Positions 3-38,280 of a DNA stretch of 64,000 nt are shown one piece after another (positions within the stretch are counted from its first letter, which is position 1; every line of letters starts with the position of its first letter). Both the position numbers and the translations under genes were made by a program. The DNA lies in NCBI GenBank assembly GCA_963723615.1, contig CAVRRV010000020.1, positions 8,884 through 72,883 of the forward strand, read 5' to 3'. Under the pieces are notes generated by a model. It had not been told where the DNA came from. It made no database searches and saw nothing but the letters and a program-made list of their open reading frames with translations. This DNA comes from an uncultured Actinomycetota bacterium. GTDB taxonomy: Bacteria; Actinomycetota; Actinomycetes; Mycobacteriales; Mycobacteriaceae.

Positions 3-143
3 GCTGCTCGCACGCTGAGCAGGAAAGATCCCCGCATCAAAGAAGACGACAGCGTCCGCGCGCCGTTGCAGATGCTCACCAATGCGCTGAACCTCTGGGA
101 AACAAGGCGCTTCGGTGATCTTCTCGATGCGGCGCTCGCTTGA
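3..143 (+). CDS. 3' end of an unidentified CDS running in from the left edge
   Basis: Open frame from base 3 to TGA at 141-143 reads AARTLSRKDPRIKEDDSVRAPLQMLTNALNLWETRRFGDLLDAALA*, which looks protein-like; family not recognised. Confidence 0.35.
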   Translation, partial: AARTLSRKDPRIKEDDSVRAPLQMLTNALNLWETRRFGDLLDAALA

Positions 144-4964: not shown

Positions 4965-5708
4965 ATGGATCGTGTTGCGGTGATTACCGGTGCCAGTCGA
5001 GGCATCGGTGCGGCGACTGCTTTAGTCCTCGCGCAGCAGGGATTTCGGGTGGTGGTCAACTACCGGTCCAGCGCCGGGGAAGCAGACGAGGTGGTCGGGG
5101 CCGCGACCGCGGCCGGTGGAGAGGCGGTGGCGATTCGGGCCGACGTCACCGAAGCCGACGATGTCGCGGCGATGTTCGAGGAAACCGAACGGCGTTGGGG
5201 CCGAGTCGATGTGCTCGTGCACAACGCGTTGATCCCCTACGATGTCACCTCGTTTGCCGATCTGAGTTGGGAGCAGCTGGGCGGCAAGCTGGACCGCGAG
5301 CTGCATGCCGCGTTCCTGGTGACCAAAGCTGTTGTGCCGGGGATGATTTCCCGCAACTTTGGCCGGCTGGTCTATATGACAACGATATTGTCGCGTCGGC
5401 CCCGCCAAGGCATGATCAACCTGGGTACGGCCAAAGCGGCAATGGACCAGTTCGTCCGCTATGTCGCTCTGGAAGTGGCCCCGCACGGCATCACCGCCAA
5501 CCTCGTTTCGCCGGCGACGGTGGGCGACACCACGGCCAACAAGCTGTTGGCGTCCGACGACCTGCGCCACCTCGGCGCCACCAACCCGATGGGGCGCCTG
5601 GTCACACCCGACGAGGTGGCCCACACGATCGCGTTTGTGGCCAGTGAGGATTCCGGTTTCATCACCGGCCATTGCGTGGAGGTCAACGGCGGCCTGGCGA
5701 TGGACTGA
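4965..5708 (+). CDS. SDR-family oxidoreductase (atypical active site)
   Basis: TGASRGIG Rossmann motif; LGTAK replaces YxxxK; C-terminal FITGHCVEVNGG. Confidence 0.88.
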   Translation: MDRVAVITGASRGIGAATALVLAQQGFRVVVNYRSSAGEADEVVGAATAAGGEAVAIRADVTEADDVAAMFEETERRWGRVDVLVHNALIPYDVTSFADLSWEQLGGKLDRELHAAFLVTKAVVPGMISRNFGRLVYMTTILSRRPRQGMINLGTAKAAMDQFVRYVALEVAPHGITANLVSPATVGDTTANKLLASDDLRHLGATNPMGRLVTPDEVAHTIAFVASEDSGFITGHCVEVNGGLAMD

Positions 5709-5751
5709 AACAGGTTCCGCCGCTAGAGAAGATCGGAAAGGAGTGTTGGCC

Positions 5752-6636
5752 GTGGAGACGATCGATCTCGCCTACGTCGGGCGGGGTATCCACGAGGAAC
5801 TGGTCGCCCACGTCGCCGACCAAGAGGGCTACTTCGAAGATGAAGGCGTCCATGTGGCCGTCCGCGACGGGGTCAGCTGGCCAGCGGAGCGGCTGCGCCG
5901 CGGCGCGGTGATCGGTCTGGGCAGGACCCTGGTGTCGCGGCTGACCGACGGGATCGAGTGGACCGCGCTCAGCTTCAGCACCGATCATCCGCTGTTCTGG
6001 TTTCTTGGCAACGCCGAAGTGAAGTCCATGGCCGATCTTCGCGGGCGGCGCCTGGCCGTCCACGGCCCCTCCAACCCTCCCGGCACTTTCGCCCGCATCG
6101 TCCTGCGCAAGCACGGCCTGGACCCCGACCGCGACCTGAAATGCGTGGTGCGTCACCCCGGTGACTACCAGATGGACATACGACACCTCCGCGACGGCTC
6201 GATCGACGCCGCCTACGTCGGCAGCACCCTTTCACCCGAACAGGTCGCCGACGAAGAAGGGTTTCACGTGCTGGCCTGGATCGGTGATCACTTCCAGATC
6301 CCCACCGTGGGCATCGTCGTGGACCCCACCCATATCCCGCTGGACAGCCCCGCCGTGGGTGCCCTGGTGCGCGCCAACGAGCGCGCTCTGCATTTCCTCA
6401 TCGAAAACCCAAGCAAGGCAGTCGATTACGTCGCGTGGTTCCTGGACCGCCTCACCCATGAGGAAGCCCAACTATACTATGACCGCTATGTCGGGCCGTA
6501 CTTCGTCCCCGGCCGCAAGGCCGACCTCAATGTGACGCAGCAAGCAATCGACGCCGTCGCCGGTGAACTCGGTGTCGCGCCGGTAGCCGCGGACACGATG
6601 TATGGGCTCGCAGGCCGGCAGGCCGAAGACAACTGA
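5752..6636 (+). CDS. NMT1/THI5/SsuA-like substrate-binding-fold protein
   Basis: GYFEDEGVHV, VKSMADLRGRRLAV, LRDGSIDAA motifs; AAGGAG RBS before GTG 5752; no signal peptide visible. Confidence 0.75.
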   Translation: METIDLAYVGRGIHEELVAHVADQEGYFEDEGVHVAVRDGVSWPAERLRRGAVIGLGRTLVSRLTDGIEWTALSFSTDHPLFWFLGNAEVKSMADLRGRRLAVHGPSNPPGTFARIVLRKHGLDPDRDLKCVVRHPGDYQMDIRHLRDGSIDAAYVGSTLSPEQVADEEGFHVLAWIGDHFQIPTVGIVVDPTHIPLDSPAVGALVRANERALHFLIENPSKAVDYVAWFLDRLTHEEAQLYYDRYVGPYFVPGRKADLNVTQQAIDAVAGELGVAPVAADTMYGLAGRQAEDN

Positions 6637-6677
6637 TAACGCAAAACCCACGGCACTAGGCGAAAGACTCTTCCATC

Positions 6678-7076
6678 ATGAGCACACCCTCGGACGGCCG
6701 CACCCGCCTCGCCTACATTCTCGGCGTACCCCTTGCCCCAGACTGCCAACGCCAATGGCCCCAAATGGGAGAGGTCGTGCGTGGCGCCGAGCTGATCGCA
6801 CAGGTCGAAGGCAACTTCCCGGAACTCACCCTAGAAGTCGGTCGACGCCTGAAACTCGATGACATCGTCGTCGCCGAGTGGACTTGCAACTATGGCGACG
6901 GACGCCTCTACCGCAACGTCAGCATCGCCGAACTCCACAACGGTCAGGCCGTCAAAGTCACCGATTATTGGGGCGAACCCACCACCACACCGCAATGGCG
7001 CCTCCCGCTGACCGATCGCCTCGACATGCCCGCCGATGGAATCTGGAAAGACACCCAACACCTCGGTCACTACTAG
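6678..7076 (+). CDS. NTF2/SnoaL-like protein
   Basis: QRQWPQMGEVVRG...VVAEWTCNYGDG...VKVTDYWGEP pattern. Confidence 0.7.
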   Translation: MSTPSDGRTRLAYILGVPLAPDCQRQWPQMGEVVRGAELIAQVEGNFPELTLEVGRRLKLDDIVVAEWTCNYGDGRLYRNVSIAELHNGQAVKVTDYWGEPTTTPQWRLPLTDRLDMPADGIWKDTQHLGHY

Positions 7077-7106
7077 CGCGCCTGGGCAGCCCAGATTCGT
7101 CTCCGA

Positions 7107-7874
7107 TCACCAGGTCTGCTCGGCGGCGCGGATGAGGATGTCGTTGACGGCGACGCGCCTATCGCGGGTGACCATGTACGTCACTGCGTCGGCGATGTCT
7201 TCGGGGCGCAACTTCACCATGCCGGAGGTCTGGCGGTCGAACGCTTCGCGGAACTCGGGTCGCAATCCGTCGCTTATCTCGGTGTCGACCGTGCCGGGCG
7301 CGACGATGCCGACCCGAACTCGCTTGCCCAGCAACTCTTGTCGCAGACCCTCGCTAAACGCGTTGACTCCGAACTTCGTCAACGAGTAGACGGCGGTGCC
7401 CGGTCGCGCCACCCGACCCGCCGTCGAACTGACCGTCACCACATCCGCGACGCCGCGCGCCGAGTCGGCGGCCGCCTCGATGAGGTGCGGCAGTGCGGCG
7501 CGCGTGGCGTATAGCACCCCAAAGACGTTGACCGACACCAGGTCGTCCCACTCCGCCAGGGGTGCCTCGGCGACCTGGCCCATGCGCATCAGCCCCGCGT
7601 TGTTGACCAGAACGTCGAGTCTGCCGAGCGTGCTGACTGCACGGCCGATCGCAGCACCGACGGATTCGGGATCGGTGACGTCCGCGGGTACCGCAAGAAC
7701 GCGACCGCCGTCGGCCTTGATTCTCGCGGCGACCTCGTCGAGGCGGTCGACTCGACGGGCGAGCAGTGCCACTGCCGCCCCGTGCCGTGCTAGGGCGACG
7801 GCGGTGGCGGCACCGATGCCGCTGCTGGCACCTGTCACCACGGCGACGGTTTCGGTGAGTGCCTCGGTGGACAA
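7107..7874 (-). CDS. SDR-family oxidoreductase
   Basis: TGASSGIG, NNAG, YSLTK catalytic motif. Confidence 0.93.
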   Translation of the reverse strand: MSTEALTETVAVVTGASSGIGAATAVALARHGAAVALLARRVDRLDEVAARIKADGGRVLAVPADVTDPESVGAAIGRAVSTLGRLDVLVNNAGLMRMGQVAEAPLAEWDDLVSVNVFGVLYATRAALPHLIEAAADSARGVADVVTVSSTAGRVARPGTAVYSLTKFGVNAFSEGLRQELLGKRVRVGIVAPGTVDTEISDGLRPEFREAFDRQTSGMVKLRPEDIADAVTYMVTRDRRVAVNDILIRAAEQTW

Positions 7875-7886
7875 TGTCCGTCCTCT

Positions 7887-10301
7887 CTAACCCGACGTGC
7901 GCTGTCTGCCGACGATGTCGCCAAACACGTACGCGTCGTGTTCGCCCAGATCGGGCGCGCCGTGCTCGATCAGGGCCTCATCGGTCGACATTTTCCAGGG
8001 TGCGCCCAACACCGGGCGTTGGCCCTCCCGGTGGTCGCTGACGAATCGGTAGCACTCGCGGGCCCAGAGGCGTTCGTCGGCGATCACGTCGGGCGCAGTG
8101 GCGCTCTTGCCGGCCGGTATCCCCGCGCACTGCAATCGGCGCACCAGGTCGTCCACATCGTGACCGGCGGTGAGCAGTGACAGCTCGGCGTCCAGCGCCT
8201 CGGCGCGAGTGAGCCGGCCGCTCGCGGTGGCGTACTCGTTAGTCAACGACGTTGCAGCGCCGAGGATCTCGCACAAGCGTCGCCATTGATCGTCGTCCAC
8301 GACGGCCAGGCTGAGCCAGCTTCCGTCGGCGCACGGATAACACCCGTATGGGGCCATGTCGGGATGATAGTTCCCGTCCGGCTGCGGGCAAACGCCCGTG
8401 AGGGCGTGCTCGAGCAGGCTGTCGCCGATCATGCTCGACAGCGTCTCCACTGCCGACACGTCGACGAACTGGCCCTCGCCGGTGGCTTCGCGGTGCAGCA
8501 ACGCGGCGAGCGCGCCGAATGCGGCGGCCGCGCCGACCGTCGAGTCGCCGTAGCGCATGTTGGCTCCGAGCGGACCACCTCCGCGGTAACCGACGAGCGC
8601 CGAGAGACCGGAGAGCGCGGCGAAGCTCGGTGCGTATCCGGTTTGGTAACCCAGCGGCCCATCGTTGCCCCACATCTTGATCGACACCGAGATGATGTCA
8701 GGTTTGATGGCCGCGAGGTCCGTGTAGCCGAGGCCTTGGCGTTCCATCGCCCCGGGCCGCAGGTTGTTGATGACGATATCGCTTTCGGCGATCAGGTCGC
8801 GCAGCCGTCCCATTCCCACAGGGGACTTGATGTCCAGGTCGACGCTGAGGATCTCGGGGTTGATCGACAGGAAGAACGGCGCGTGGTTGACGTCGGTGCC
8901 GCCGTAGACGCGCATCTCCTCGGGGCTCGCCGAACATTCGACTTTGATCACCTCGGCGCCGAGGAACGCCAACAACTTGCCCGTGTACGGGCCCGCCCAG
9001 ACCTTCGTCAGTTCGACGACCCGGACCCCTTCGAGCGGCCCGCCGCGGGCGCGGCCCGGCCGCCTGCGTTGGGGGGACACCACGGTCGGGAGGTTCGGCG
9101 ACCAGCCGGGGTGTTCGGTGTGCGCGCCGAGTGCCGGTGCGGGGCTGACGATTTCGACCGGCGACGCGCTGAGGCGGTACGGCACCGTGGGATGAACGAC
9201 GGTGCCGAGCACCGGATGGTCCACCTCCTGGAAGAAGCCGCGATGGCAGTACTGAGCCGACGCTCGCAGGTCGGCCGCATCGTTCACGGGCACCAGCGGC
9301 ACACCCAGCCGCTGGGCCTCCTCGGAGGCCGGCACCCGCGGTTGGTCGGCAATCCACTGCGCGAAGCCGCGGCGAAAAGTCGCCACCTTTTCGCGGGTCA
9401 CGGAGAATTCCAGCCAGTCGTCGTCGAACTCGTCAAGCCATCCGGGACGCCCCAGCAATTGCTTGACCGCGAGCCAATGGCTGCGATTGGTCATGTACAG
9501 ATACACGTGACCGTCGGCGCACGTGAAGAAAGAGGCGGGACCCTGCTGGTCGTAGTCCTCCCTGGTGCCCTCTGGGGCGATCTCGCCGGTGACGAACCGT
9601 CCGATCACGCAGTCGGCCCTCGATGCCATGACTGCCTGCTCGGAGATGTCGACGAACCGTCCCGGTCTGCCGTGCAGCAGGCCGTACAGGGACGCGCTGA
9701 CGCACAGGGCGGCATCCAACGCGGCCTCGTAGTCGACCAGGAACCGTCCCGGACCCTTCAACGGCGGAGTGCCGGGGTCGGCGTGGCTGGGCGTGTGATA
9801 ACCCCAGCCACTTTCGTGAAAGACGTTGATGTTCTGCGCATTCCACGTCTCCGCTGGCGCGTCGCAGCCGTACGGGGTGATCGAGCAGAACACCGTGCCG
9901 GGGTGACGCTGCTCGACCTGGCCCGGCGATATGCCCAGCCGCGCAAGCCAAGCGGGGTTGTGGTCGTCGATGACGGCGTGCGCGCCGGCGATGAGTCCGT
10001 GCAGCCGGTCGGCCCCGGCCGCGGTGTTCAGGTCACACACCGCCGACCGCTTGTTGGTGTTCAGATAGGCGAACAATCCGCTGCGCTCGGGTTCGGGGCC
10101 CGACCCGATCAAAGGATGCATCGATCGGGTCGGGCTTCCGGTGCCCGGGCGTTCGACCTTGATGACGTCGGCGCCGAAGTCGGCCAACAGTTTTCCGCAG
10201 TACTCACCGGCCGGTGATTCGGCTATTTCGACGATACGGAAGCCATGCAACGCCGACACGGTGGTCAGGGCTTGCTGCGGCCCGAGCGGCTCAGCCGCCA
10301 C
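7887..10301 (-). CDS. Tandem two-domain family III (CaiB/BaiF) CoA-transferase; likely start GTG 10259
   Basis: Two repeats of GxRV/IVE...AG.Y.GKLLAxxGAxVIKVE; N-domain YLNTNKRS and C-domain INPEILS; candidate catalytic Asp in VDYEAA and GDSTVG. Confidence 0.92.
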   Translation of the reverse strand: MAAEPLGPQQALTTVSALHGFRIVEIAESPAGEYCGKLLADFGADVIKVERPGTGSPTRSMHPLIGSGPEPERSGLFAYLNTNKRSAVCDLNTAAGADRLHGLIAGAHAVIDDHNPAWLARLGISPGQVEQRHPGTVFCSITPYGCDAPAETWNAQNINVFHESGWGYHTPSHADPGTPPLKGPGRFLVDYEAALDAALCVSASLYGLLHGRPGRFVDISEQAVMASRADCVIGRFVTGEIAPEGTREDYDQQGPASFFTCADGHVYLYMTNRSHWLAVKQLLGRPGWLDEFDDDWLEFSVTREKVATFRRGFAQWIADQPRVPASEEAQRLGVPLVPVNDAADLRASAQYCHRGFFQEVDHPVLGTVVHPTVPYRLSASPVEIVSPAPALGAHTEHPGWSPNLPTVVSPQRRRPGRARGGPLEGVRVVELTKVWAGPYTGKLLAFLGAEVIKVECSASPEEMRVYGGTDVNHAPFFLSINPEILSVDLDIKSPVGMGRLRDLIAESDIVINNLRPGAMERQGLGYTDLAAIKPDIISVSIKMWGNDGPLGYQTGYAPSFAALSGLSALVGYRGGGPLGANMRYGDSTVGAAAAFGALAALLHREATGEGQFVDVSAVETLSSMIGDSLLEHALTGVCPQPDGNYHPDMAPYGCYPCADGSWLSLAVVDDDQWRRLCEILGAATSLTNEYATASGRLTRAEALDAELSLLTAGHDVDDLVRRLQCAGIPAGKSATAPDVIADERLWARECYRFVSDHREGQRPVLGAPWKMSTDEALIEHGAPDLGEHDAYVFGDIVGRQRTSG

Positions 10302-11236
10302 TCCGGCGGGAAATTCATGTCGTTGTCCTTGACCACGTTGTTCAGCCCCTTCTCGAACGTGCCCGAGGTGAGGTCGACGTCGTTCTGCTTGTCGTTCTGG
10401 ATCAGTGGCAGCATTCCCTCCACCATTCCGGTCAACAGGCTGCCGAAATACTCACCCTTGTGCTGCTTGTAGAGTTCCAGGAACGTCTTCTGCACCGCGA
10501 CGGTGTCGGTGGGACGGGACTTCGAACAGGCCATTGCGTACTTGAGCGTCTCCGCTTCCAGGTCCTCGCGGGGCACGACGCTGTTGACGAATCCGCAGTC
10601 GTACATCTCCTTGGCACTGAACGGCCGTCCCGTGAACAGCATTTCGGAGAACTTGCGCAGACCCATGGTCTCGGCCCACCACCACAGCCGCGGGCCCCAG
10701 CCGACATACCGGAACGCCGGGTGACCGAACAGCGCATCGTCGGAGGAGATCACCATGTCGGCATCGCCGGCCTGGTAGAAGTGCCAGCCGTAGCAGTAGC
10801 CCTTCGCTTCGATGATGCTGATCTTGCGCAGTTCCTGCAGCGGTCGGTTGCCGGCGCGGGCCTTGGCATAGAAGTCGGTCACCGTTGACAGATAACGGTA
10901 CGAGCCGCCGGGCGGGTACTTGACGTCGTCGTCGTTGATCGCCAGCTCGTGGAGCAGCGGCATTCCGGGATTCTCCAGCATGGGGCGCTGTTCGGGCAGG
11001 TCACCGCCGCTGCCGAAATCCTCTCCCTCCCCGCGTATCACGACGACCTTGACGTCGTCATCGACGTTGCACTTGTGGATGATATCGGCATAGTTCTGCC
11101 GCATGCCAAGGGTGGCCGAGTTCTGCGCGTCGGGCCGATCGAAGGTGATGTAGGCGATGCGGTTCTTGACGTCCTTCTCGAACTTGATGTACTGCTCGGC
11201 TTCCTTCTTCATCTCTTCGTAGTCGAACTCAGGCAT
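10265..11236 (-). CDS. Crotonase/enoyl-CoA hydratase superfamily protein
   Basis: IAYITFDRPDAQNS, FGSGGDL, EMLFTGRPFSAKEMYDCGFVN; GAGGAG RBS before ATG 11236. Confidence 0.88.
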   Translation of the reverse strand: MPEFDYEEMKKEAEQYIKFEKDVKNRIAYITFDRPDAQNSATLGMRQNYADIIHKCNVDDDVKVVVIRGEGEDFGSGGDLPEQRPMLENPGMPLLHELAINDDDVKYPPGGSYRYLSTVTDFYAKARAGNRPLQELRKISIIEAKGYCYGWHFYQAGDADMVISSDDALFGHPAFRYVGWGPRLWWWAETMGLRKFSEMLFTGRPFSAKEMYDCGFVNSVVPREDLEAETLKYAMACSKSRPTDTVAVQKTFLELYKQHKGEYFGSLLTGMVEGMLPLIQNDKQNDVDLTSGTFEKGLNNVVKDNDMNFPPEWRLSRSGRSKP

Positions 11237-11267
11237 GTCGCTCCTCAATTGTTGGTTTGCTGATCCG

Positions 11268-11360
11268 TTAGTTAAGTAGTGCGCCCGCATCAACGGGGAG
11301 TTGTACGCCTGTGACGTAACAGGATTCGTCGGAGTCGAAGAACAGCACGCCGTCACACAT
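11268..11360 (-). pseudogene. C-terminal remnant of an SDR oxidoreductase (30-aa mini-ORF)
   Basis: Reads MCDGVLFFDSDESCYVTGVQLPVDAGALLN*, matching the SDR tail motif AVLFLxSDxxxYxTGxxLPVDAG. Confidence 0.75.
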
Positions 11361-12483
11361 GGTTTGAGCCCACCGCTGCCGGGCTCAGCACGTGTGGACC
11401 ATCATCGCCGATGTGGACGGCATCACGCCGGAATACCGCCCCGACGCCCTCCTGCCACACGTAATTCGTTACCGCCAAGATCATCCCGGAGTCCAGACGC
11501 TCCGCAGCCGCGGTGCGCGGGATGGCCGGCGACACCACCGGCGGGTCAAAGCCCAGCCCCAGGCCGTACGCGACCGGCGTCGCCGGCAGCGGCTCACCGG
11601 CCGCCTCGTAGGCGGCGAACAGATCCGCGGCCGCCGCGCCGGGCCGGCACGCAGCAATCAGGCGTTTGCCCAAGCTATCCGAGCGTCGGTACAGCGCCCG
11701 AATGGCTTGGGTATCGTCGTCGCCCACCACCACCGTCCGGCCTACCTCGCCGACGTACCCGTTAGCCAGCGCGCCGGCGGAAAGCGCAACGAGGTCGCCC
11801 AGCTGCACGCGGCCGTCGCCGTCGGCACGTTGCCAGGGATGGTGACGCGAGGTCACCCAGGCGGCATCCTGGCTGGCGGAGGTCGTTACTCCGCCCGCGG
11901 CCATTGCCTCCAGCACGGCTCCGGCCACCGTCTTCTCAGCCACTCCCGGCGCCAATGTCGCTATGCCAGCGCGCATTCCCGCTTCGGCGGTGCTCATCGC
12001 GGTGCTCATCGCAGCTAATTCCTCGGGCGTCTTGATCCGGCGCGCGGCTCGCATGGCGGGCTCGGCGTTGACGAGTTCGGCGTTGGGAAAGGCGATCGGC
12101 AGCAGCTCGGCGAAGGTCGGCGTGATCGCGTCGGATCCCACGCGCCGAACGGTGCGCGCCCCGTCGATGTCTTTCAGCACCTCGATGAGCTTCATCGGGC
12201 TCCAGGTCAGCCCGTACAGGCGTTCGCGGCCGATCTCCTCGGGGACTCCCTCGTCCCATGTGCTGTTCAAGTGAATTTCGCCGGTGGCACCGTCGAGAAC
12301 GCAGATCGGTGCGAATGGACGGGTGCCCGCCACCCATAGCTGCGGGACGCCGGTGACGTAGCGGACGTTGGCCTGACGCCCCAGCACGACCATGTCCAAG
12401 CCGTGGGCCCGCATCTGAGCCAGTGCGCGTTCGCGGCGGGCGATGCGTAGTGCCCGGTTGTCGGGCGCGGTCTCAGTAACCAT
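11353..12483 (-). CDS. M24 (Xaa-Pro peptidase/creatinase fold) protein, metal ligands degenerate
   Basis: Creatinase N-domain LGRQANVRYVTG and ARRIKTPEEL; ligand positions read S, E, Y, T, D instead of D, D, H, E, E. Confidence 0.85.
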   Translation of the reverse strand: MVTETAPDNRALRIARRERALAQMRAHGLDMVVLGRQANVRYVTGVPQLWVAGTRPFAPICVLDGATGEIHLNSTWDEGVPEEIGRERLYGLTWSPMKLIEVLKDIDGARTVRRVGSDAITPTFAELLPIAFPNAELVNAEPAMRAARRIKTPEELAAMSTAMSTAEAGMRAGIATLAPGVAEKTVAGAVLEAMAAGGVTTSASQDAAWVTSRHHPWQRADGDGRVQLGDLVALSAGALANGYVGEVGRTVVVGDDDTQAIRALYRRSDSLGKRLIAACRPGAAAADLFAAYEAAGEPLPATPVAYGLGLGFDPPVVSPAIPRTAAAERLDSGMILAVTNYVWQEGVGAVFRRDAVHIGDDGPHVLSPAAVGSNHV

Positions 12484-13705
12484 AAGGCGTGTAGGGATAG
12501 TCGGTGATGACCTGGTATCCGTCTTCGGTGATGATCACGATCTCCTCGCTGCGGTAACCGCCGGTGCCGTCCTCCCAGACCACCGGCTCCAGCACCAGCA
12601 CCATGCCGGGCGGGAAGACGAAGTTGTTGTCGAACTCCTCGCCCAGATCCGTTCCGATCATGGGTGTTTCGGCCGGGTAGGTACCGATGCCGTGGCCCAG
12701 GTAGAAATGCGGCAGCCACGGTTTGGTTCCACCATTGGCGGCTATCGCCGCTCGGGCCAGATCGCCAGACGTCGCACCGGCCCGGGTAACGCCCAGTGCG
12801 GCGTCCAGGATGGCGCGCCACTGCGCGAACTGATCCTGCTGGCGTGCTGACGGATTGGCGCCGACCAGCCAGGTCCGGCCGAAGTCCGAGCAGTACCCGC
12901 CGTAGGTAATGCTCACGTCTGTCCACAGCACGTCTCCAGCGCACAGCCGCCGATCCGTCGTCAGTAACGGCAGTGCGAGATCGCCGTGCGTGGTCCATTG
13001 GCCCTCCGCGCGAGAGCGGGGCATCACCTGCCAAATCGCATCCAGCATGTTGGCAGTTGCGCCGAGTTCGAAGGCGCGGCGCACGAAGGTTGCTGACAGG
13101 TCGAGCTGGCTGACGCCGGGCGCCAGCTGCTTCTGTACCTCTGCCATCGTCTGTTCGGTGATACGGCATGCCCGGTGGATGCACGAAATCTCATCTGGCG
13201 TTTTCACCAGCTGGGCCGCCCCGACCACTACGGCAGCTTCCAGCGGTGGCCCACCCGGGAACAGCCGGTCCGACGCGTCGCGCATCGCCCCGGTCATCTC
13301 GTCGACGGCCACGGTCGCCCCCGGCGGGACGAGCTCGGCCATCGTTGTGGCCAAATGCTCTACGCCCTCGTCGAATTCGAGGTACAGCGGGCCGTGGCGA
13401 TGATCCGCCGGCACCTGGAACTCCGCTGAGGCACCTTCGCGGAACGGCATGAACAGGTGCGGGTGCTCGTCGCCGGCCACCATGATGGCCACCGGGCGCT
13501 GCGCATGTGACAGTCCCGCGTCCAGCAGCGGCCAGCTGGCACCGGTCGCGTAGCTGACGTGGCCGTTCATCAGCAGGATCATCGCGTCGACACCGTGGTC
13601 GGCCATGGCCGACCGCAGCCTGGCGCCGACCTCGGAGTACATCCGGGCGAGGTCGGGTGAGTCGGGTATCCACGGCCCGCTCGTCGCCGTAGTGTCCAGT
13701 TTCAT
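12473..13705 (-). CDS. M24 metallopeptidase-family protein
   Basis: WTDV, CSDFGRT, LGHGIG, VLEP, RSEE give a full D-D-H-E-E ligand set. Confidence 0.9.
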   Translation of the reverse strand: MKLDTTATSGPWIPDSPDLARMYSEVGARLRSAMADHGVDAMILLMNGHVSYATGASWPLLDAGLSHAQRPVAIMVAGDEHPHLFMPFREGASAEFQVPADHRHGPLYLEFDEGVEHLATTMAELVPPGATVAVDEMTGAMRDASDRLFPGGPPLEAAVVVGAAQLVKTPDEISCIHRACRITEQTMAEVQKQLAPGVSQLDLSATFVRRAFELGATANMLDAIWQVMPRSRAEGQWTTHGDLALPLLTTDRRLCAGDVLWTDVSITYGGYCSDFGRTWLVGANPSARQQDQFAQWRAILDAALGVTRAGATSGDLARAAIAANGGTKPWLPHFYLGHGIGTYPAETPMIGTDLGEEFDNNFVFPPGMVLVLEPVVWEDGTGGYRSEEIVIITEDGYQVITDYPYTPYGY

Positions 13706-13890
13706 GACAGGCCCAGGAATCGTTTGACGTTGCCGCTGACGATCCGGGCGGCGTCCTGGGGCCCGACCGCGCCGACGACGGCCGACAGTGACTTCTCCGA
13801 GTAGCCGAAGGTGCTTCCGGCGTGGCCGCGGCGGTGCTTGGGCGCGCCGAAACCTCCTGGGGGATACAGGGTATTCGCGTGGGTGGACAT
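13702..13890 (-). pseudogene. Amidohydrolase_2-family gene collapsed in frame to 62 aa (N- and C-termini fused)
   Basis: MSTHANTLYPPGGFGAPKHRRGH joined to STFGYSEKSLSAVVGAVGPQDAARIVSGNVKRFLGLS*; both halves match, from recall, the termini of a roughly 400-aa mycobacterial amidohydrolase. Confidence 0.72.
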
Positions 13891-13902
13891 CGTCGTCCCT
13901 TT

Positions 13903-14070
13903 CTAGAGCAGGCCGGCCAGTTTCAGGTCGTCGAGGTACTTGTTGATGGGCTCTACTGTGACATGCGGTATTTCATGTCCAGAGCGGCGCACTCCGGATC
14001 GGAAGTCCTCGCCGGGCACCGGTGAGCCGGCGGTGGCGGTGGTCAGCGTCAGACCGTCATCGTGGGCCAT
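13903..14070 (-). pseudogene. C-terminal remnant of a carboxylic-acid-reductase/thioester-reductase gene (55-aa mini-ORF)
   Basis: GSPVPGEDFRSGVRRSGHEIPHVTVEPINKYLDDLKLAGLL* resembles the CAR/FadD9 tail (FRAAV...DIPHV...IxKYxxDLxLLGLL*); ATG lies 4 nt after the P450 stop. Confidence 0.65.
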
Positions 14071-14074
14071 CCCG

Positions 14075-15316
14075 CTACCAGACCACGGGCAGTTCGTGCA
14101 GCCCGTAGGCCAGCGCGTCGTGTTTGAACGGGAGTTCGTCGTGGGGAACCGCCAACCGCAGCGTCGGGATGCGACGCAGCAGCGACGGCAGCACGATCTG
14201 TAGCTCCATGCGGGCCAATTGCTGGCCCACGCACTGATGCCTGCCGTAACCGAATCCGACCTGTGGTCCGTCTTGACGCTGCAGATCCAGACGATCCGGC
14301 GCCGGGAACTGGCGCGCATCCCAGTTGGCCGGCGCCACGTCTAGGATGATCCCTTCGCCCGCGCGGATCACTTCCCCGTCCACCTCGATGTCTTCGACCG
14401 CGATGCGCCGCTGGCCCGTCTGAATGATGCTGCAGTAGCGCATCAGTTCCTCGACGGCGGTGGCGATGACTTTCGGGTCCTCGGCGTCGCGCAGGAAGGC
14501 CAATTGGTCGGGGTTCTCCAGCAGCGCCGCGACGCTGACGCTGATCTGCCCGGCGGTGGTCTCGTGCCCGGCGATGAGTACGCCGGTGGCCAGTTGCGCG
14601 GCTTCGCGGTCGGTGATCTCGCCGGCCTTGACGCGTTCGGCCAAATCCGACACCAGGTTTTCGCCTGGGTCGTCCATCTTGATGTGGATGAGTTTCTTGA
14701 TGTATCGGGCCAGCGTCCCAGCGCCTTGGGCGGCGTCTTCTGCGGTGGCGTAGCGGTTCATGCCCCGGTTGGCCTGCTCCTGGAAGAAGTCCGCGTCTTC
14801 GTATGGCACGCCCAGCATTTCGCTGATCACCAGCGAGGGAATCGCCAGGGCGAGGCCTTCGACGAGGTCGGCGGGTTGGGGGCCGGCCAGAATGGCGTCG
14901 ATGTGCTCGTCGGTGATGCGTTGCACCGCGGGCCGCAGCGCCTCGACTCGTTTGAACGTGAAAGGCCGTGAAAGCATCCGGCGATACCGAGTGTGCTCTT
15001 CCGCGTCCGAGGTGAACACCGACCGCGGCCGCTTGTGGACCGTGGACAACATGCCCTCGTTCCAGTGCGGGTAGCCCGGCAGTCGGTCGTCGACGCTGGC
15101 GCGGGCATCGCTGAACAGTGACCGGATGGCTTCGTAACCGGTGATCAGCCAAGGGGTGCTGCCGTCCCAGATGCGGACCCGGCTGAGCTGCTTGGATGCG
15201 TTGAGCTCCAACGCTTTCGGCGGCGGGGCGAAGGGGCAGCCGGCGGCCCGTGTCATCGGGAAGTCGGGGACGTCCGGTGCAGTCTCGCCGGTGCTCCCAG
15301 TGAGCAGGTTCGTCAT
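14075..15316 (-). CDS. Cytochrome P450 (CYP105/107-like)
   Basis: AGHETT I-helix, EELMR ExxR, FGYGRHQCVGQQLAR heme-binding Cys. Confidence 0.97.
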   Translation of the reverse strand: MTNLLTGSTGETAPDVPDFPMTRAAGCPFAPPPKALELNASKQLSRVRIWDGSTPWLITGYEAIRSLFSDARASVDDRLPGYPHWNEGMLSTVHKRPRSVFTSDAEEHTRYRRMLSRPFTFKRVEALRPAVQRITDEHIDAILAGPQPADLVEGLALAIPSLVISEMLGVPYEDADFFQEQANRGMNRYATAEDAAQGAGTLARYIKKLIHIKMDDPGENLVSDLAERVKAGEITDREAAQLATGVLIAGHETTAGQISVSVAALLENPDQLAFLRDAEDPKVIATAVEELMRYCSIIQTGQRRIAVEDIEVDGEVIRAGEGIILDVAPANWDARQFPAPDRLDLQRQDGPQVGFGYGRHQCVGQQLARMELQIVLPSLLRRIPTLRLAVPHDELPFKHDALAYGLHELPVVW

Positions 15317-15365: not shown

Positions 15366-16040
15366 TCATTGTCGCCTCGGCTTTGGCGCGGAACTGCCCG
15401 CGCGGATTGGGGCCTGCCACACGCCTGTGATCGCGTCGATGAGCCCTTCAGCTGCCAATGGCCATGACGACCGTGCGCGAGGGCCGTGTACTGCCAGGGC
15501 GCCTTCGTGCTCGGCGCACGTATGCATGAGCAGGTTTCGGGCCATCACGATCCGCTCGAAACGGACGCGCTTGGGCAGGTCGGGCATGCACCGAATGATC
15601 CCGTCAATCGTGTGCGCCAACTGTGGAGAGGCCACCGCGTCTTTGGTCACCACGTCCCGATAGTTCGGATCGGCCATGGCCTGTGCGGCAAACCGCGCGT
15701 AGAAGCTGGGAATTCCCAATTCCGCGAGGTGGTCGGTGAGGGGACGCACCAGGGACGCGACCCAGTCGTGAAGTTCGGTGCTGCCGGCGAGCTCAGCGAG
15801 CATCCCCGCCCGCAGCGCCTCGATGGGGGTGCGGTGCTTGCTTTCGATGGCGCGCAGCAGGTCGGTCCTGGTGCCGAAGTGGTAGCACACCGCGGCGTTG
15901 TTTCTCTGTCCGGCCGCATCGCTGATCTGCCGGTTGGATACGGCGTACATGCCCCGCTCGGCGAAGAGCTGTTCAGCAGCTGCCAGCAAGACCTCGCGCG
16001 TGCCCTCGGACCTGTCGCTGCTCAGCGCTACTGCGGTCAC
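15366..16040 (-). CDS. TetR-family regulator
   Basis: TREVLLAAAEQLFAERG...AAVCYHFGTRTDLLRA HTH; GTG 16040 is the likely start. Confidence 0.9.
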   Translation of the reverse strand: MTAVALSSDRSEGTREVLLAAAEQLFAERGMYAVSNRQISDAAGQRNNAAVCYHFGTRTDLLRAIESKHRTPIEALRAGMLAELAGSTELHDWVASLVRPLTDHLAELGIPSFYARFAAQAMADPNYRDVVTKDAVASPQLAHTIDGIIRCMPDLPKRVRFERIVMARNLLMHTCAEHEGALAVHGPRARSSWPLAAEGLIDAITGVWQAPIRAGSSAPKPRRQ

Positions 16041-16066
16041 CGGCTCAGTGAAACATCCTTGAACGG

Positions 16067-16086
16067 AATAAATCAAGCAATTTATT
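16067..16086. promoter_or_regulatory. Palindromic candidate TetR operator
   Basis: AATAAAT-CAAGCA-ATTTATT, a perfect 7-bp inverted repeat just upstream of the TetR start in an AT-rich patch. Confidence 0.5.
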
Positions 16087-16162
16087 TAAGTGGTCGCCGA
16101 CGCTGCAGGAACCTTTCTTAAAGCAGACCTGCGGCTACGCCGCACCGACTGAGGCTCCGCGC

Positions 16163-16193
16163 GCAGGGACCCAGCAGGGACCGGGCAGGGACC
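16163..16193 (+). repeat. Three direct copies of GCAGGGACC at 11-bp period
   Basis: Copies start at 16163, 16174 and 16185. Confidence 0.8.
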
Positions 16194-16361
16194 GGCCACC
16201 AGGCCAGCAAACACCGATTCAGCTGCGCCGCCGCCGACGATTTGGCGATGACCGTTTCTTGGGTCGCGGTGGCGGTATTTACACTGGGAAGTCCGCCTGC
16301 TTGCGAGCTTCACCGACGACTATTTGCGCCTGCTGGCCGTCTGCCATCGCCGCCGTGCCCG

Positions 16362-36803: not shown

Positions 36804-38215
36804 TGCTGGGCCTTGCCCAAGGTGACCTGGACCTTCCGGCTGTCCCCGGACGGATCCTTGTACGTCAGCGTCACTTTGTCGCCAGGTGCCTTGGATCGCA
36901 CCGCGGCGACCAAGGCGTCGGCGCTGTTGACCGGACGGTCGTCGACCTTGGTGACCACGACTCCGCCGGGCAGGCCGGCGGAGGCCGCTGCACCATTCGG
37001 TATCACCTCGACGACTTTGGCGCCGGGTGTGTCCTTGTCGTTGGTGACCTGAACGCCCAGTGAGGCATGCGACGCGGTGCCGGTGCTGATCAGCTCGTCG
37101 GCGATGCGCTTGGCCTGATCGACCGGAATCGCAAAGCCAAGTCCGATCGAACCGCTCTGCGCATCCGGCGAATCACCGCCCAGTGTGGCAATCGCAGAGT
37201 TGACGCCAACCAACTGTCCGGCCATGTTGACCAACGCGCCCCCGGAGTTACCGGGGTTGATCGCGGCGTCGGTCTGGATGGCGTCGAGCACGGTGTTCTG
37301 GTTGCCCGACTCACCGGTCGTCGACACCGGCCGGTTGAGCGCGCTGACAATGCCGGTGGTCACCGTGCCCTCCAGGCCCAGCGGTGAGCCGACCGCCATC
37401 ACGGGCTGGCCGACTCGCAAGTTCGCCGACGACCCGAGGCTGATCGGTGTCAGCCCGGAAACGCCTTGCACACGCACCACTGCGATGTCAGTGGTGGGAT
37501 CTGCCCCAACAACGCTGAACTCCGCGGTGCGCCCGTCGGAGAACGTCACTGTGGTCTTCGGTGGCCCGCCGGCGGGATTGCTGTCGGGCTCCCGGCCGCC
37601 GCCTCCGTCGTCGGACCCCCGATGGGGGGCAGGAGGAGCATGACCGGGGTTGGCCGCGGTGGCGACAACGTGGTTGTTGGTCAGGATCAAACCGTCCGAA
37701 GACAGGACGATGCCTGAACCCTCCTCGGATTGACGACCCAGGTCGGTCTCGAGCATCACCACGCTGGGCACCACCTTGGCAGCGATCTGCTCGACGTTGC
37801 CTACCGGCGCGTTACCAGCGGGCACGCTGGGAGCCGCCCCGCCCGATAACACTCCGTCGGCGGTGGCTGCCAGCTGCCCGTTGTGCTCGATCACCGACGC
37901 GGCCGCACCGCCGATGCCGGCCGATACCACCGCGATCGCCAATGCGCCGACGGCCAATGCACCTGCGCGGGAACGCTTTCGGGGTACGCGCAACTGAGGC
38001 GGCGGCGGGCTGCCTGCGGGCGGCCCGGCCTGACCCGCACCGAATGCACCGTACTGCTGCCGGTACGACGGCTGCTGGCCATAGCGCCAGTCGTACCCCT
38101 GGGGATACGTTTGCTGCTGCCCATGGCCGGAATAGCCTGTGGCCCCACGCTGATCGGACACTGGACGGTATCCGTGCTGTTGCGGCGGTGGCGAATACCT
38201 CGGGTGATTCGTCAT
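36800..38215 (-). CDS. pepD: HtrA-like serine protease PepD (Rv0983)
   Basis: LTNNHV, DIAVV, AAINPGNSGG catalytic triad; C-terminal PDZ domain; transmembrane helix. Confidence 0.96.
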   Translation of the reverse strand: MTNHPRYSPPPQQHGYRPVSDQRGATGYSGHGQQQTYPQGYDWRYGQQPSYRQQYGAFGAGQAGPPAGSPPPPQLRVPRKRSRAGALAVGALAIAVVSAGIGGAAASVIEHNGQLAATADGVLSGGAAPSVPAGNAPVGNVEQIAAKVVPSVVMLETDLGRQSEEGSGIVLSSDGLILTNNHVVATAANPGHAPPAPHRGSDDGGGGREPDSNPAGGPPKTTVTFSDGRTAEFSVVGADPTTDIAVVRVQGVSGLTPISLGSSANLRVGQPVMAVGSPLGLEGTVTTGIVSALNRPVSTTGESGNQNTVLDAIQTDAAINPGNSGGALVNMAGQLVGVNSAIATLGGDSPDAQSGSIGLGFAIPVDQAKRIADELISTGTASHASLGVQVTNDKDTPGAKVVEVIPNGAAASAGLPGGVVVTKVDDRPVNSADALVAAVRSKAPGDKVTLTYKDPSGDSRKVQVTLGKAQQ

Positions 38216-38280
38216 GTCGCTAGGTCGCTCTTTCCTTGTTCCTTGTGGAGTCGGTTCAGACTCAAACAGTAACTTGACAA

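Follow-up and report, generated by a model that had tools for sequence, protein, structure and literature searches.

Engineered non-polar in-frame deletion scars, such as those of the Keio collection design, keep the start codon and the last few codons of the gene removed. During reductive evolution in Mycobacterium leprae and Mycobacterium ulcerans, the loss of accessory catabolic genes has left recognizable fragments, with decay that is typically frameshifted and stop-ridden. Short open reading frames (ORFs) are also found inside mycobacterial operons in the form of MIRU ORFs (Supply et al. 1997, as presented in PMC12548453): short, non-functional ORFs between operon genes, coupled at -4 nucleotides (nt), with downstream expression thought, in that account, to be almost unchanged. 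Stop-start overlaps of the NUGA type occur frequently in M. tuberculosis, in many cases with no Shine-Dalgarno sequence, and they go together with reduced Rho-dependent termination (bioRxiv 10.1101/2022.06.01.494293); NUGA-coupled translated upstream ORFs of this species figure in the same preprint and in Huber et al. 2019 and 2023, as cited in PMC12548453, where Rho-dependent polarity is reviewed. The locus considered here lies in a 64,000-nt stretch of DNA (the window; coordinates below are positions within it) from an uncultured Actinomycetota bacterium of the Mycobacteriaceae (assembly GCA_963723615.1, contig CAVRRV010000020.1, positions 8,884-72,883 of the forward strand). It is a TetR-linked catabolic operon of a soil Mycobacterium from which genes have been lost stepwise. 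One of them, an amidohydrolase (AH), has collapsed to a 62-codon stub, which most likely survives, judging from sequence comparison, as a relay ORF for the next gene, M24a.

On the minus strand the order is TetR regulator, cytochrome P450, a 55-amino-acid (aa) ORF, a 62-aa ORF, the M24 proteins M24a and M24b, a 30-aa ORF, an enoyl-CoA hydratase (ECH), a CoA-transferase, and a short-chain dehydrogenase (SDR). An earlier note, made from this DNA alone, had given the same order from P450 onward and the same coordinates, which hold, and Pfam agrees with its family assignments (Table 1). It had also taken the three mini-ORFs for remnants of longer genes left by three deletions, and had set a comparison with complete clusters in relatives as a check beforehand. 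That comparison, covering about 170 related loci in total (given here as L-numbers) and including an M24a-anchored scan of 80 mycobacterial genome loci and 80 metagenome loci, found full-length SDRx, carboxylic acid reductase (CAR), AH, and SDR genes at matching places; the mini-ORFs are indeed remnants. The count of events changes: two deletions, which removed three genes from the P450-M24a interval, and one rearrangement take the place of three deletions.

The parent genes can be seen in locus L015, Mycolicibacterium moriokaense, with the order TetR, P450, a 316-aa SDR (SDRx), a 1166-aa CAR, a 390-aa Amidohydro_2 protein (AH), and M24a; in most other full versions M24b follows M24a. The L015 CAR scores 1658 bits against NCBIfam carboxyl_red (NF041592; cut-off 1300 bits), and a 278-aa SDR stands upstream of ECH in the same locus. 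SDRx, CAR, and AH together occupy the space between P450 and M24a in L004, L014, L015, L030, L033-35, L052, L054, L055, and L095-97; among relatives generally, this interval holds SDRx-CAR-AH, SDRx-AH, AH only, SDRx only, or nothing. A full AH gene is present in the near-identical L081, whose flanking genes differ from those of the window by about 3.6%, and in L091.

Compared with the 390-aa allele of L081, the 62-aa ORF has undergone a 984-nt in-frame internal deletion with its junction between 13816 and 13815. A prefix of 75 nt meets a suffix of 114 nt with 0 nt of microhomology, joining codons 1-25 to the last 37, so that residues 1-25 of the stub correspond to AH residues 1-25, and residues 26-62 to about 354-390 of AH. 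Ahead of the ORF stands AAAGGGACGACG, which is unchanged in L001 and in the L091 full-length allele, and the ORF ends in a TGA that shares bases with the start codon of M24a (ATGA, 13702-13705); the retained ribosome-binding site and overlap, both claimed in the earlier note, are read directly from the sequence. The TIM-barrel hydrolase domain is not kept: the 62-aa ORF gave no Pfam match, and the full-length L081 allele carries PF04909.

Alleles of the stub were found by look-up of the window ECH protein, an exact look-up of the M24b protein having returned no record; the soil-metagenome contigs retrieved share the downstream gene order as far as they reach. They carry AH as the full 390-aa gene (L081), as a 73-aa stub (...GHAGE joined to MWSSDYPHNESTF...; L082-L085 and L088), or as the 62-aa stub of the window (L086, L087, L089, and L090). 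The 73-aa allele lacks 951 nt relative to L081, and its left breakpoint lies 2 nt from that of the 62-aa allele (window 13815-13818; L082 5189-5410), a proximity that could reflect either a nested second deletion or a fragile site. Both junctions were checked for microhomology, as had been proposed beforehand, and are blunt; no repeat element was seen when they were compared, and repeat-mediated slippage is unsupported as their origin. Over M24a, M24b, and ECH together, the window clade lies 3.5-3.9% from the others and L081 lies 0.9-1.0% from the main 73-aa group; these distances, taken with the alleles themselves, mean that full-length and collapsed AH are found side by side in one species complex. 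The deletion in AH is a recent one that is still polymorphic, and the AH parts common to all alleles still look constrained (pN/pS, the ratio of nonsynonymous to synonymous polymorphism, about 0.11), which fits a very recent loss.

Related forms of the stub occur more widely. The 62-aa allele with the same junction is also found on a different sequence background, P0002, a 62-aa protein cluster with 43 member sequences. A protein search with the 62-aa stub recovered two further in-frame alleles, P0004 and P0005, which were kept out of the frame statistics below because a stub-based search can find in-frame remnants only. The next relative, L001/L092 (86-90% identity), shows a 63-aa SDRx collapse and a 29-aa AH collapse (MSTQANTLYPPGGFGAPKH joined to GNVKRFLGLS).

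The relation between the AH stop and the M24a start suggests what the stub may be doing. Neither M24 gene has a Shine-Dalgarno sequence, with anti-Shine-Dalgarno duplexes of -2.6 kcal/mol for M24a and -0.2 kcal/mol for M24b, against -9.3 kcal/mol at the AH stub start. Of the 81 loci with intact AH, 51 have the M24a start at a spacing of -4 nt from the AH stop, 17 at +1, 7 at 0, and 2 at -1; the spacing thus falls within -4 to +1 nt in 77. This spacing, combined with the missing Shine-Dalgarno sequence, is the pattern that would be expected for termination-reinitiation coupling. M24a would normally be started by ribosomes finishing the AH ORF at the ATGA overlap; the 62-aa stub, which keeps the AH ribosome-binding site, ATG, open frame, and stop, would still deliver ribosomes to M24a, and would leave little untranslated RNA exposed to Rho. 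Deletions that preserve such a relay would be those that persist, and the stub would be a relay ORF, not a protein.

Reading frames of independent remnants bear on this proposal. Next to M24a, seven AH remnants are in frame from native start to native stop: the window stub (62 aa), the 73-aa allele, L001/L092 (29 aa), L010/L098 (40 aa, an SDRx-AH fusion), L049 (24 aa), L062 (28 aa), and L122 (26 aa). One more (L076, 34 aa) stays open from end to end because two frame changes compensate each other, and the remaining four (L026, L106, L107, and L068) are out of frame. Under a binomial expectation of 1/3, 7/11 in frame gives p=0.039 and 8/12 gives p=0.019. Remnants lying upstream of an AH gene or stub, which has its own Shine-Dalgarno sequence, behave as chance would have it: four are in frame (the window 55-aa ORF, L001, L068, and L116) and six are out of frame or decayed (L007, L024, L117, L122, L165, and L142/L143), or 4/10 (p=0.44).

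Some loci arrive at the same result by other routes. In L067, L133/L138, and L165, M24a is extended in frame by 3-16 codons from the beginning of the lost gene, and in L008 the P450 ORF runs into the final two codons of AH, the ATGA being kept. In L062 (9868-10001), P450, a 5-aa ORF, the 28-aa AH remnant, and M24a are chained by ATGGTGA, ATGA, and TGATG overlaps (-4, -4, and -1 nt). In L076 (9879-10001), the 34-aa remnant is an SDRx-AH fusion whose AH tail is out of frame until a 1-nt deletion restores the frame, and it ends at the native ATGA.

Selection on the neighboring genes differs from that on the stub peptides. Within the population, pN/pS is 0.05-0.18 for P450 and 0.11-0.25 for M24a; M24b gives 0.22-0.37 (one pair, with only 7 differences, gives 0.91) and ECH gives 0. 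These ratios show that P450 and the downstream genes M24a, M24b, and ECH are still under purifying selection, which indicates that they remain functional. The corresponding values are 0.73-2.1 for usable pairs of the 55-aa ORF and 0.8-1.6 for the 30-aa ORF, the two stubs old enough to measure, and the peptides evolve neutrally. Since they are not conserved, any function of a stub would lie in being translated rather than in making a protein.

The 55-aa ORF begins with an ATG 4 nt past the P450 TAG stop and consists of the first ~10 codons of SDRx joined in frame to the last ~45 codons of CAR. With the start of SDRx and the end of CAR in one ORF, a single in-frame deletion of ~4.3 kb, from SDRx codon ~10 to CAR codon ~1122 with its fusion junction near 14041/14040, took the bulk of SDRx, the spacer, and almost the whole of CAR. 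Its previous description as a CAR-like tail was right about the C-terminus and missed the start of the second lost gene. The N-terminus MAHDDGLTLT aligns by position and DNA with the SDRx start in L001 (MARDDVLTLTIPDL), L116 (MVSGSDLTLTVPDL), L015, and L117; a CAR-internal source for the "HDDG" motif was rejected in favor of the SDRx start, for which both position and DNA identity match L001. At the other end, the ORF corresponds to the final ~45 residues of CAR as preserved in L091, a 94% relative in which the CAR end is intact: the last 36 residues are identical to it in the 53/55-aa alleles of L083/L085, and 5 of these 36 differ in the window's own allele. A 6-nt ACCGCC tandem slippage polymorphism (14029-14040) sets apart the 53-aa and 55-aa alleles. 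Only equal-length alleles were used for pN/pS, the misaligned 53- versus 55-codon pairs being excluded, and the ratio is 0.73 for the equal-length pair of the window and L083; the other usable pair gives 2.1 on only 7 differences. The ORF has no Pfam match and lacks the adenylation-carrier-reductase architecture of a CAR, of which it is a remnant only. The sole expression evidence is a rhizosphere metatranscriptome contig (97.7% identity) that extends over 13927-14189, covering the P450 end and most of the 55-aa ORF including the fusion junction.

The 30-aa ORF marks an older rearrangement junction, not a simple deletion. It matches the C-terminus only of its parent, being the last ~26-30 codons of the SDR found ahead of ECH in relatives (73% identity with the 278-aa SDR of L015 over its residues 249-278; a weak match, E 0.014, to positions 213-234 of the 236-position adh_short_C2 model). 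That L015 protein is of mycofactocin type, with 417 bits against TIGR03971 (cut-off 300). The TAA stop of the 30-aa ORF is native and lies 31 nt before the ECH ATG; its ATG arose at the junction and falls within the final codons of M24b (CATGTGTGA). A native start and a native stop are both kept in the 55-aa and 62-aa ORFs, and the native stop alone in the 30-aa ORF.

In every relative outside the window's lineage with an ECH more than 87% identical, the SDR(278 aa)-ECH-CoA-transferase-SDR block is on the opposite strand, facing the M24 genes from 60 nt to 8 kb away; the window ECH is 92-95% identical to ECH of the relatives with this arrangement. By blastn, window 7107-11353 is inverted relative to the M24 block, with block homology ending at 11348-11353 (the M24b stop side) and at 7104-7109 (the stop of the last SDR). 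The rearrangement junction is the M24b 3' end, where homology to L001 stops ~25 nt before the M24b stop and where the C-terminal tail after ...VLS/T is variable among relatives. The same junction, ATG, and TGA recur in L081-L088, L091, and L161. Simple in-place inversion of the ECH block was considered and set aside: it predicts an SDR "head" next to the last SDR gene, and this is absent. An ACG(G/C)CGT microhomology at the M24b/SDR junction could not be confirmed, as it rests on an 84%-identical relative. The first 80 related loci all lack the genes of the window's left flank (4965-7076).

A paralogous cluster type, TetR-P450-AH-M24a-M24b, was noted in L011, L017, L019, and ~30 other loci. 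It has a same-strand ECH directly after M24b that is 54-60% identical to the window ECH, and in the genome loci examined its CoA-transferase is ~28% identical to that of the window; the rearranged order of the window mimics a layout already existing in this cluster type. A further observation concerns L001, the closest relative outside the window's own lineage. Its synteny with the window is confined to the TetR-to-M24b module, and both flanks differ, which suggests that the module moves between genomic contexts. At window 18-119 (+) is the 3' end of a gene running off the window start, 62% identical to the C-terminus of a 411-aa protein that in L015 follows immediately downstream of the ECH block's last SDR.

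Two relatives order the events. L091 (94% identity) has the M24b-SDR-tail-ECH junction with the CAR 3' end and AH intact, and L081 has the 53-aa fusion stub with a full AH; the sequence was thus rearrangement, then the SDRx-CAR deletion, then the AH deletions. In the oldest step the ECH-CoA-transferase-SDR block became co-directional and joined to the M24b 3' end, cutting the mycofactocin-type SDR to its last ~30 codons. The in-frame ~4.3-kb deletion then left the 55-aa ORF, and a recent, blunt, in-frame deletion of 984 nt collapsed AH to 62 codons. Taken as a whole, this stepwise loss, with the AH stub as a relay ORF for a Shine-Dalgarno-less M24a, is the best explanation and in our judgment a fairly probable one. 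The 55-aa and 30-aa ORFs are most likely incidental, because each stands upstream of a gene with its own ribosome-binding site, and their in-frame or ATG-bearing state is explained by chance and breakpoint position. The suggestion in the earlier note that selection favored non-polar deletions, removing enzymes while sparing downstream expression, accordingly divides. For the AH stub it is plausible, with modest support from the lack of an M24a Shine-Dalgarno sequence, the conserved spacing, and the frame statistic (p≈0.02-0.04); for the 55-aa and 30-aa ORFs, with an own-Shine-Dalgarno gene downstream, the 4/10 frame count, and neutral evolution of the peptides, it is unsupported.

The strongest competitor is neutral decay, under which the mini-ORFs are ordinary pseudogene remnants in the course of eroding, in frame by chance in 1/3 of events, with starts and stops kept through overlap or adjacency with needed neighbors. 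Much of the locus is compatible with it, from the neutral evolution of the stub peptides and the chance-level frames upstream of AH to the out-of-frame AH remnants (L026, L106, and L107) and the many relatives that have no P450-M24a remnant or only ORFs of 3-15 codons, as ongoing erosion would leave. Neighbors also protect both ends of a remnant, as in many loci its start codon shares bases with the stop of P450 (ATGGTGA), and its stop with the start codon of M24a. Erosion accounts less readily for the 7-8 of 11-12 independent AH remnants beside M24a that end exactly at the native stop, for the two compensating changes by which L076 reaches that stop, for the overlap-linked three-ORF chain of L062, and for a Shine-Dalgarno-less M24a whose stop-start spacing is conserved. 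We regard neutral decay as a possible account of the whole, though a doubtful one.

Several considerations weigh against the relay explanation and should temper it. The frame statistic is modest, resting on 11-12 events; when only fully collapsed stubs are counted, p falls to 0.003-0.008, on a subset picked after seeing the data. The contrast between the two remnant classes alone is not significant (Fisher p=0.39). The events may not be fully independent, as the 62-aa and 73-aa alleles could be nested, and some out-of-frame cases come from metagenome-assembled genomes, in which indel errors are possible. In a few loci M24a apparently persists with no relay, namely L012 and L107, where the upstream ORF stops 36 nt early. 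The window's own population holds too few substitutions to bear on whether the ORF is being kept open. Translation of the stub and the dependence of M24a on it are predictions, and the single RNA contig over the 55-aa ORF could stem from contaminating DNA. For the oldest step, the missing SDR "head" argues against a simple in-place inversion.

It is very improbable that the mini-ORFs encode functional small proteins, for instance enzyme termini turned into regulatory peptides. In favor, every population variant seen has the ORFs open, and the 53/55-aa, 62-aa, and 73-aa ORFs were called as genes in metagenomes; yet the pN/pS values of the 55-aa and 30-aa ORFs exceed the 0-0.37 of the neighboring genes, neither the 55-aa nor the 62-aa ORF has a Pfam domain, and stub length and content vary freely among lineages (24-109 aa, with different junctions) with no common peptide conserved. 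An assembly or consensus artifact, in which the assembler would have collapsed gene bodies that the real genome still contains, was named in the earlier note as a refuting outcome and is scarcely credible: the window does resemble metagenome-derived sequence, alleles of different length co-occur in single samples, and one sequencing run (X26) has loose ends at 13818 and 13850 from which a longer AH allele continues, but independent assemblies of at least four other soil-metagenome samples gave the identical structure of 62-aa and 55-aa ORFs (L086, L087/L090, and L089), contigs of two DNA sequencing runs (X1 and X2) cover the window stubs without gaps, the 62-aa cluster has its 43 members, and no repeats flank the deletions to mislead an assembler.

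Table 1. Genes, remnant ORFs, and the retained ribosome-binding region of the operon, in order along the minus strand (window coordinates)
Feature	Position	Strand	Basis of assignment
TetR-family regulator, cluster head	15366-16076	-	Pfam TetR_N + TetR_C_30
Cytochrome P450, first enzyme gene of the operon	14075-15316	-	Pfam p450
55-aa ORF, SDRx-CAR in-frame fusion	13903-14070	-	Alignment to relatives
Retained amidohydrolase ribosome-binding region AAAGGGACGACG	13891-13902	-	Anti-Shine-Dalgarno duplex -9.3 kcal/mol
62-aa ORF, collapsed amidohydrolase (AH, Amidohydro_2)	13702-13890	-	Comparison with full-length L081 allele
M24a, creatinase/prolidase-like M24 protein	12473-13705	-	Pfam Peptidase_M24 + Creatinase_N
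M24b, second M24 protein; 11-nt overlap with M24a	11353-12483	-	Pfam
30-aa ORF, end of mycofactocin-type SDR	11268-11360	-	Homology to L015 SDR
ECH, crotonase-family enoyl-CoA hydratase	10265-11236	-	Pfam ECH_1
Two-domain family III CoA-transferase	7887-10301	-	Pfam CoA_transf_3, two matched stretches
Short-chain dehydrogenase (SDR), last gene of relocated block	7107-7874	-	Pfam adh_short

Elsewhere in the operon, starts have Shine-Dalgarno-like sites of their own: one upstream of P450 (-7.2 kcal/mol), the GAGGAG of ECH (-7.8 kcal/mol), and that of the last SDR (-12.5 kcal/mol). A scan of the coding strand from P450 to the last SDR for terminator-like sites found none. The TetR gene adjoins the P450 gene in nearly all related loci. 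A plasmid search gave a single distant ECH match and no sign of a plasmid-borne cluster. Upstream of TetR, window 16116-16360 holds 244 nt of unrelated sequence where L081, L082, and L085 carry a 254-aa α/β-hydrolase gene; in those loci the gene sits between a 271-aa gene and TetR, and it is missing in the window clade. It was considered as the source of a fourth stub and rejected, as no remnant is left at its place. At 38212-38280 (-), a 22-codon TTG-initiated ORF directly follows the stop of one predicted gene and has a 4-nt overlap with the start of the next; this may be a further mini-ORF of the relay type, or chance.

The new element here is that natural gene loss has repeatedly produced scar ORFs at one locus; a literature search for natural non-polar deletions found nothing relevant. 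If the relay explanation is true, the locus is a natural replicate experiment, in which the same accessory gene was lost many times, and differently, from one operon, and the range of deletions that can survive is set by translational coupling and Rho polarity. It would also account for a class of short ORFs that mycobacterial annotations leave unexplained and supply an annotation rule, by which a short ORF matching both ends of a neighbor's orthologue is a scar rather than a new gene. The natural alleles (full-length, 73, 62, and 29 codons) would also suit the study of termination-reinitiation in mycobacteria. We would extend the idea only tentatively, as a possibility that may well fail: that gene loss from mycobacterial operons is steered by selection, that before Shine-Dalgarno-less coupled genes only scar-ORF or start-fusion deletions persist, and that vestigial relay ORFs form a general class of short ORFs in GC-rich actinobacterial genomes. 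If the relay explanation is wrong, what remains is ordinary, well-documented recent pseudogene erosion.

Set beside the systems named at the outset, the AH stub is closest in form to Keio-type scars, with start and ribosome-binding site kept, the body removed in frame, and the native stop and next-gene overlap kept; it differs in being natural, repeated in wild populations, blunt at its junctions, and 24-109 codons long across lineages, with a benefit that we infer. It shares with MIRU ORFs the form of a short non-functional ORF inside a mycobacterial operon, its stop coupled at -4 nt to the next start; MIRU, however, is an inserted repeat that brings its own ORF, whereas here the relay ORF is the leftover of a resident gene. 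The likeness to the NUGA upstream ORFs of M. tuberculosis lies in the ATGA overlap, the lack of a canonical Shine-Dalgarno sequence downstream, and a proposed effect on starting and on protection from Rho; those ORFs lie in 5' leaders and are often regulatory, whereas the window stub is operon-internal and enzyme-derived and appears to preserve an existing coupling. Finally, in contrast to the pseudogenes of M. leprae and M. ulcerans, the fragments beside the coupled gene are mostly clean in-frame collapses, and their neighbors are still under purifying selection.

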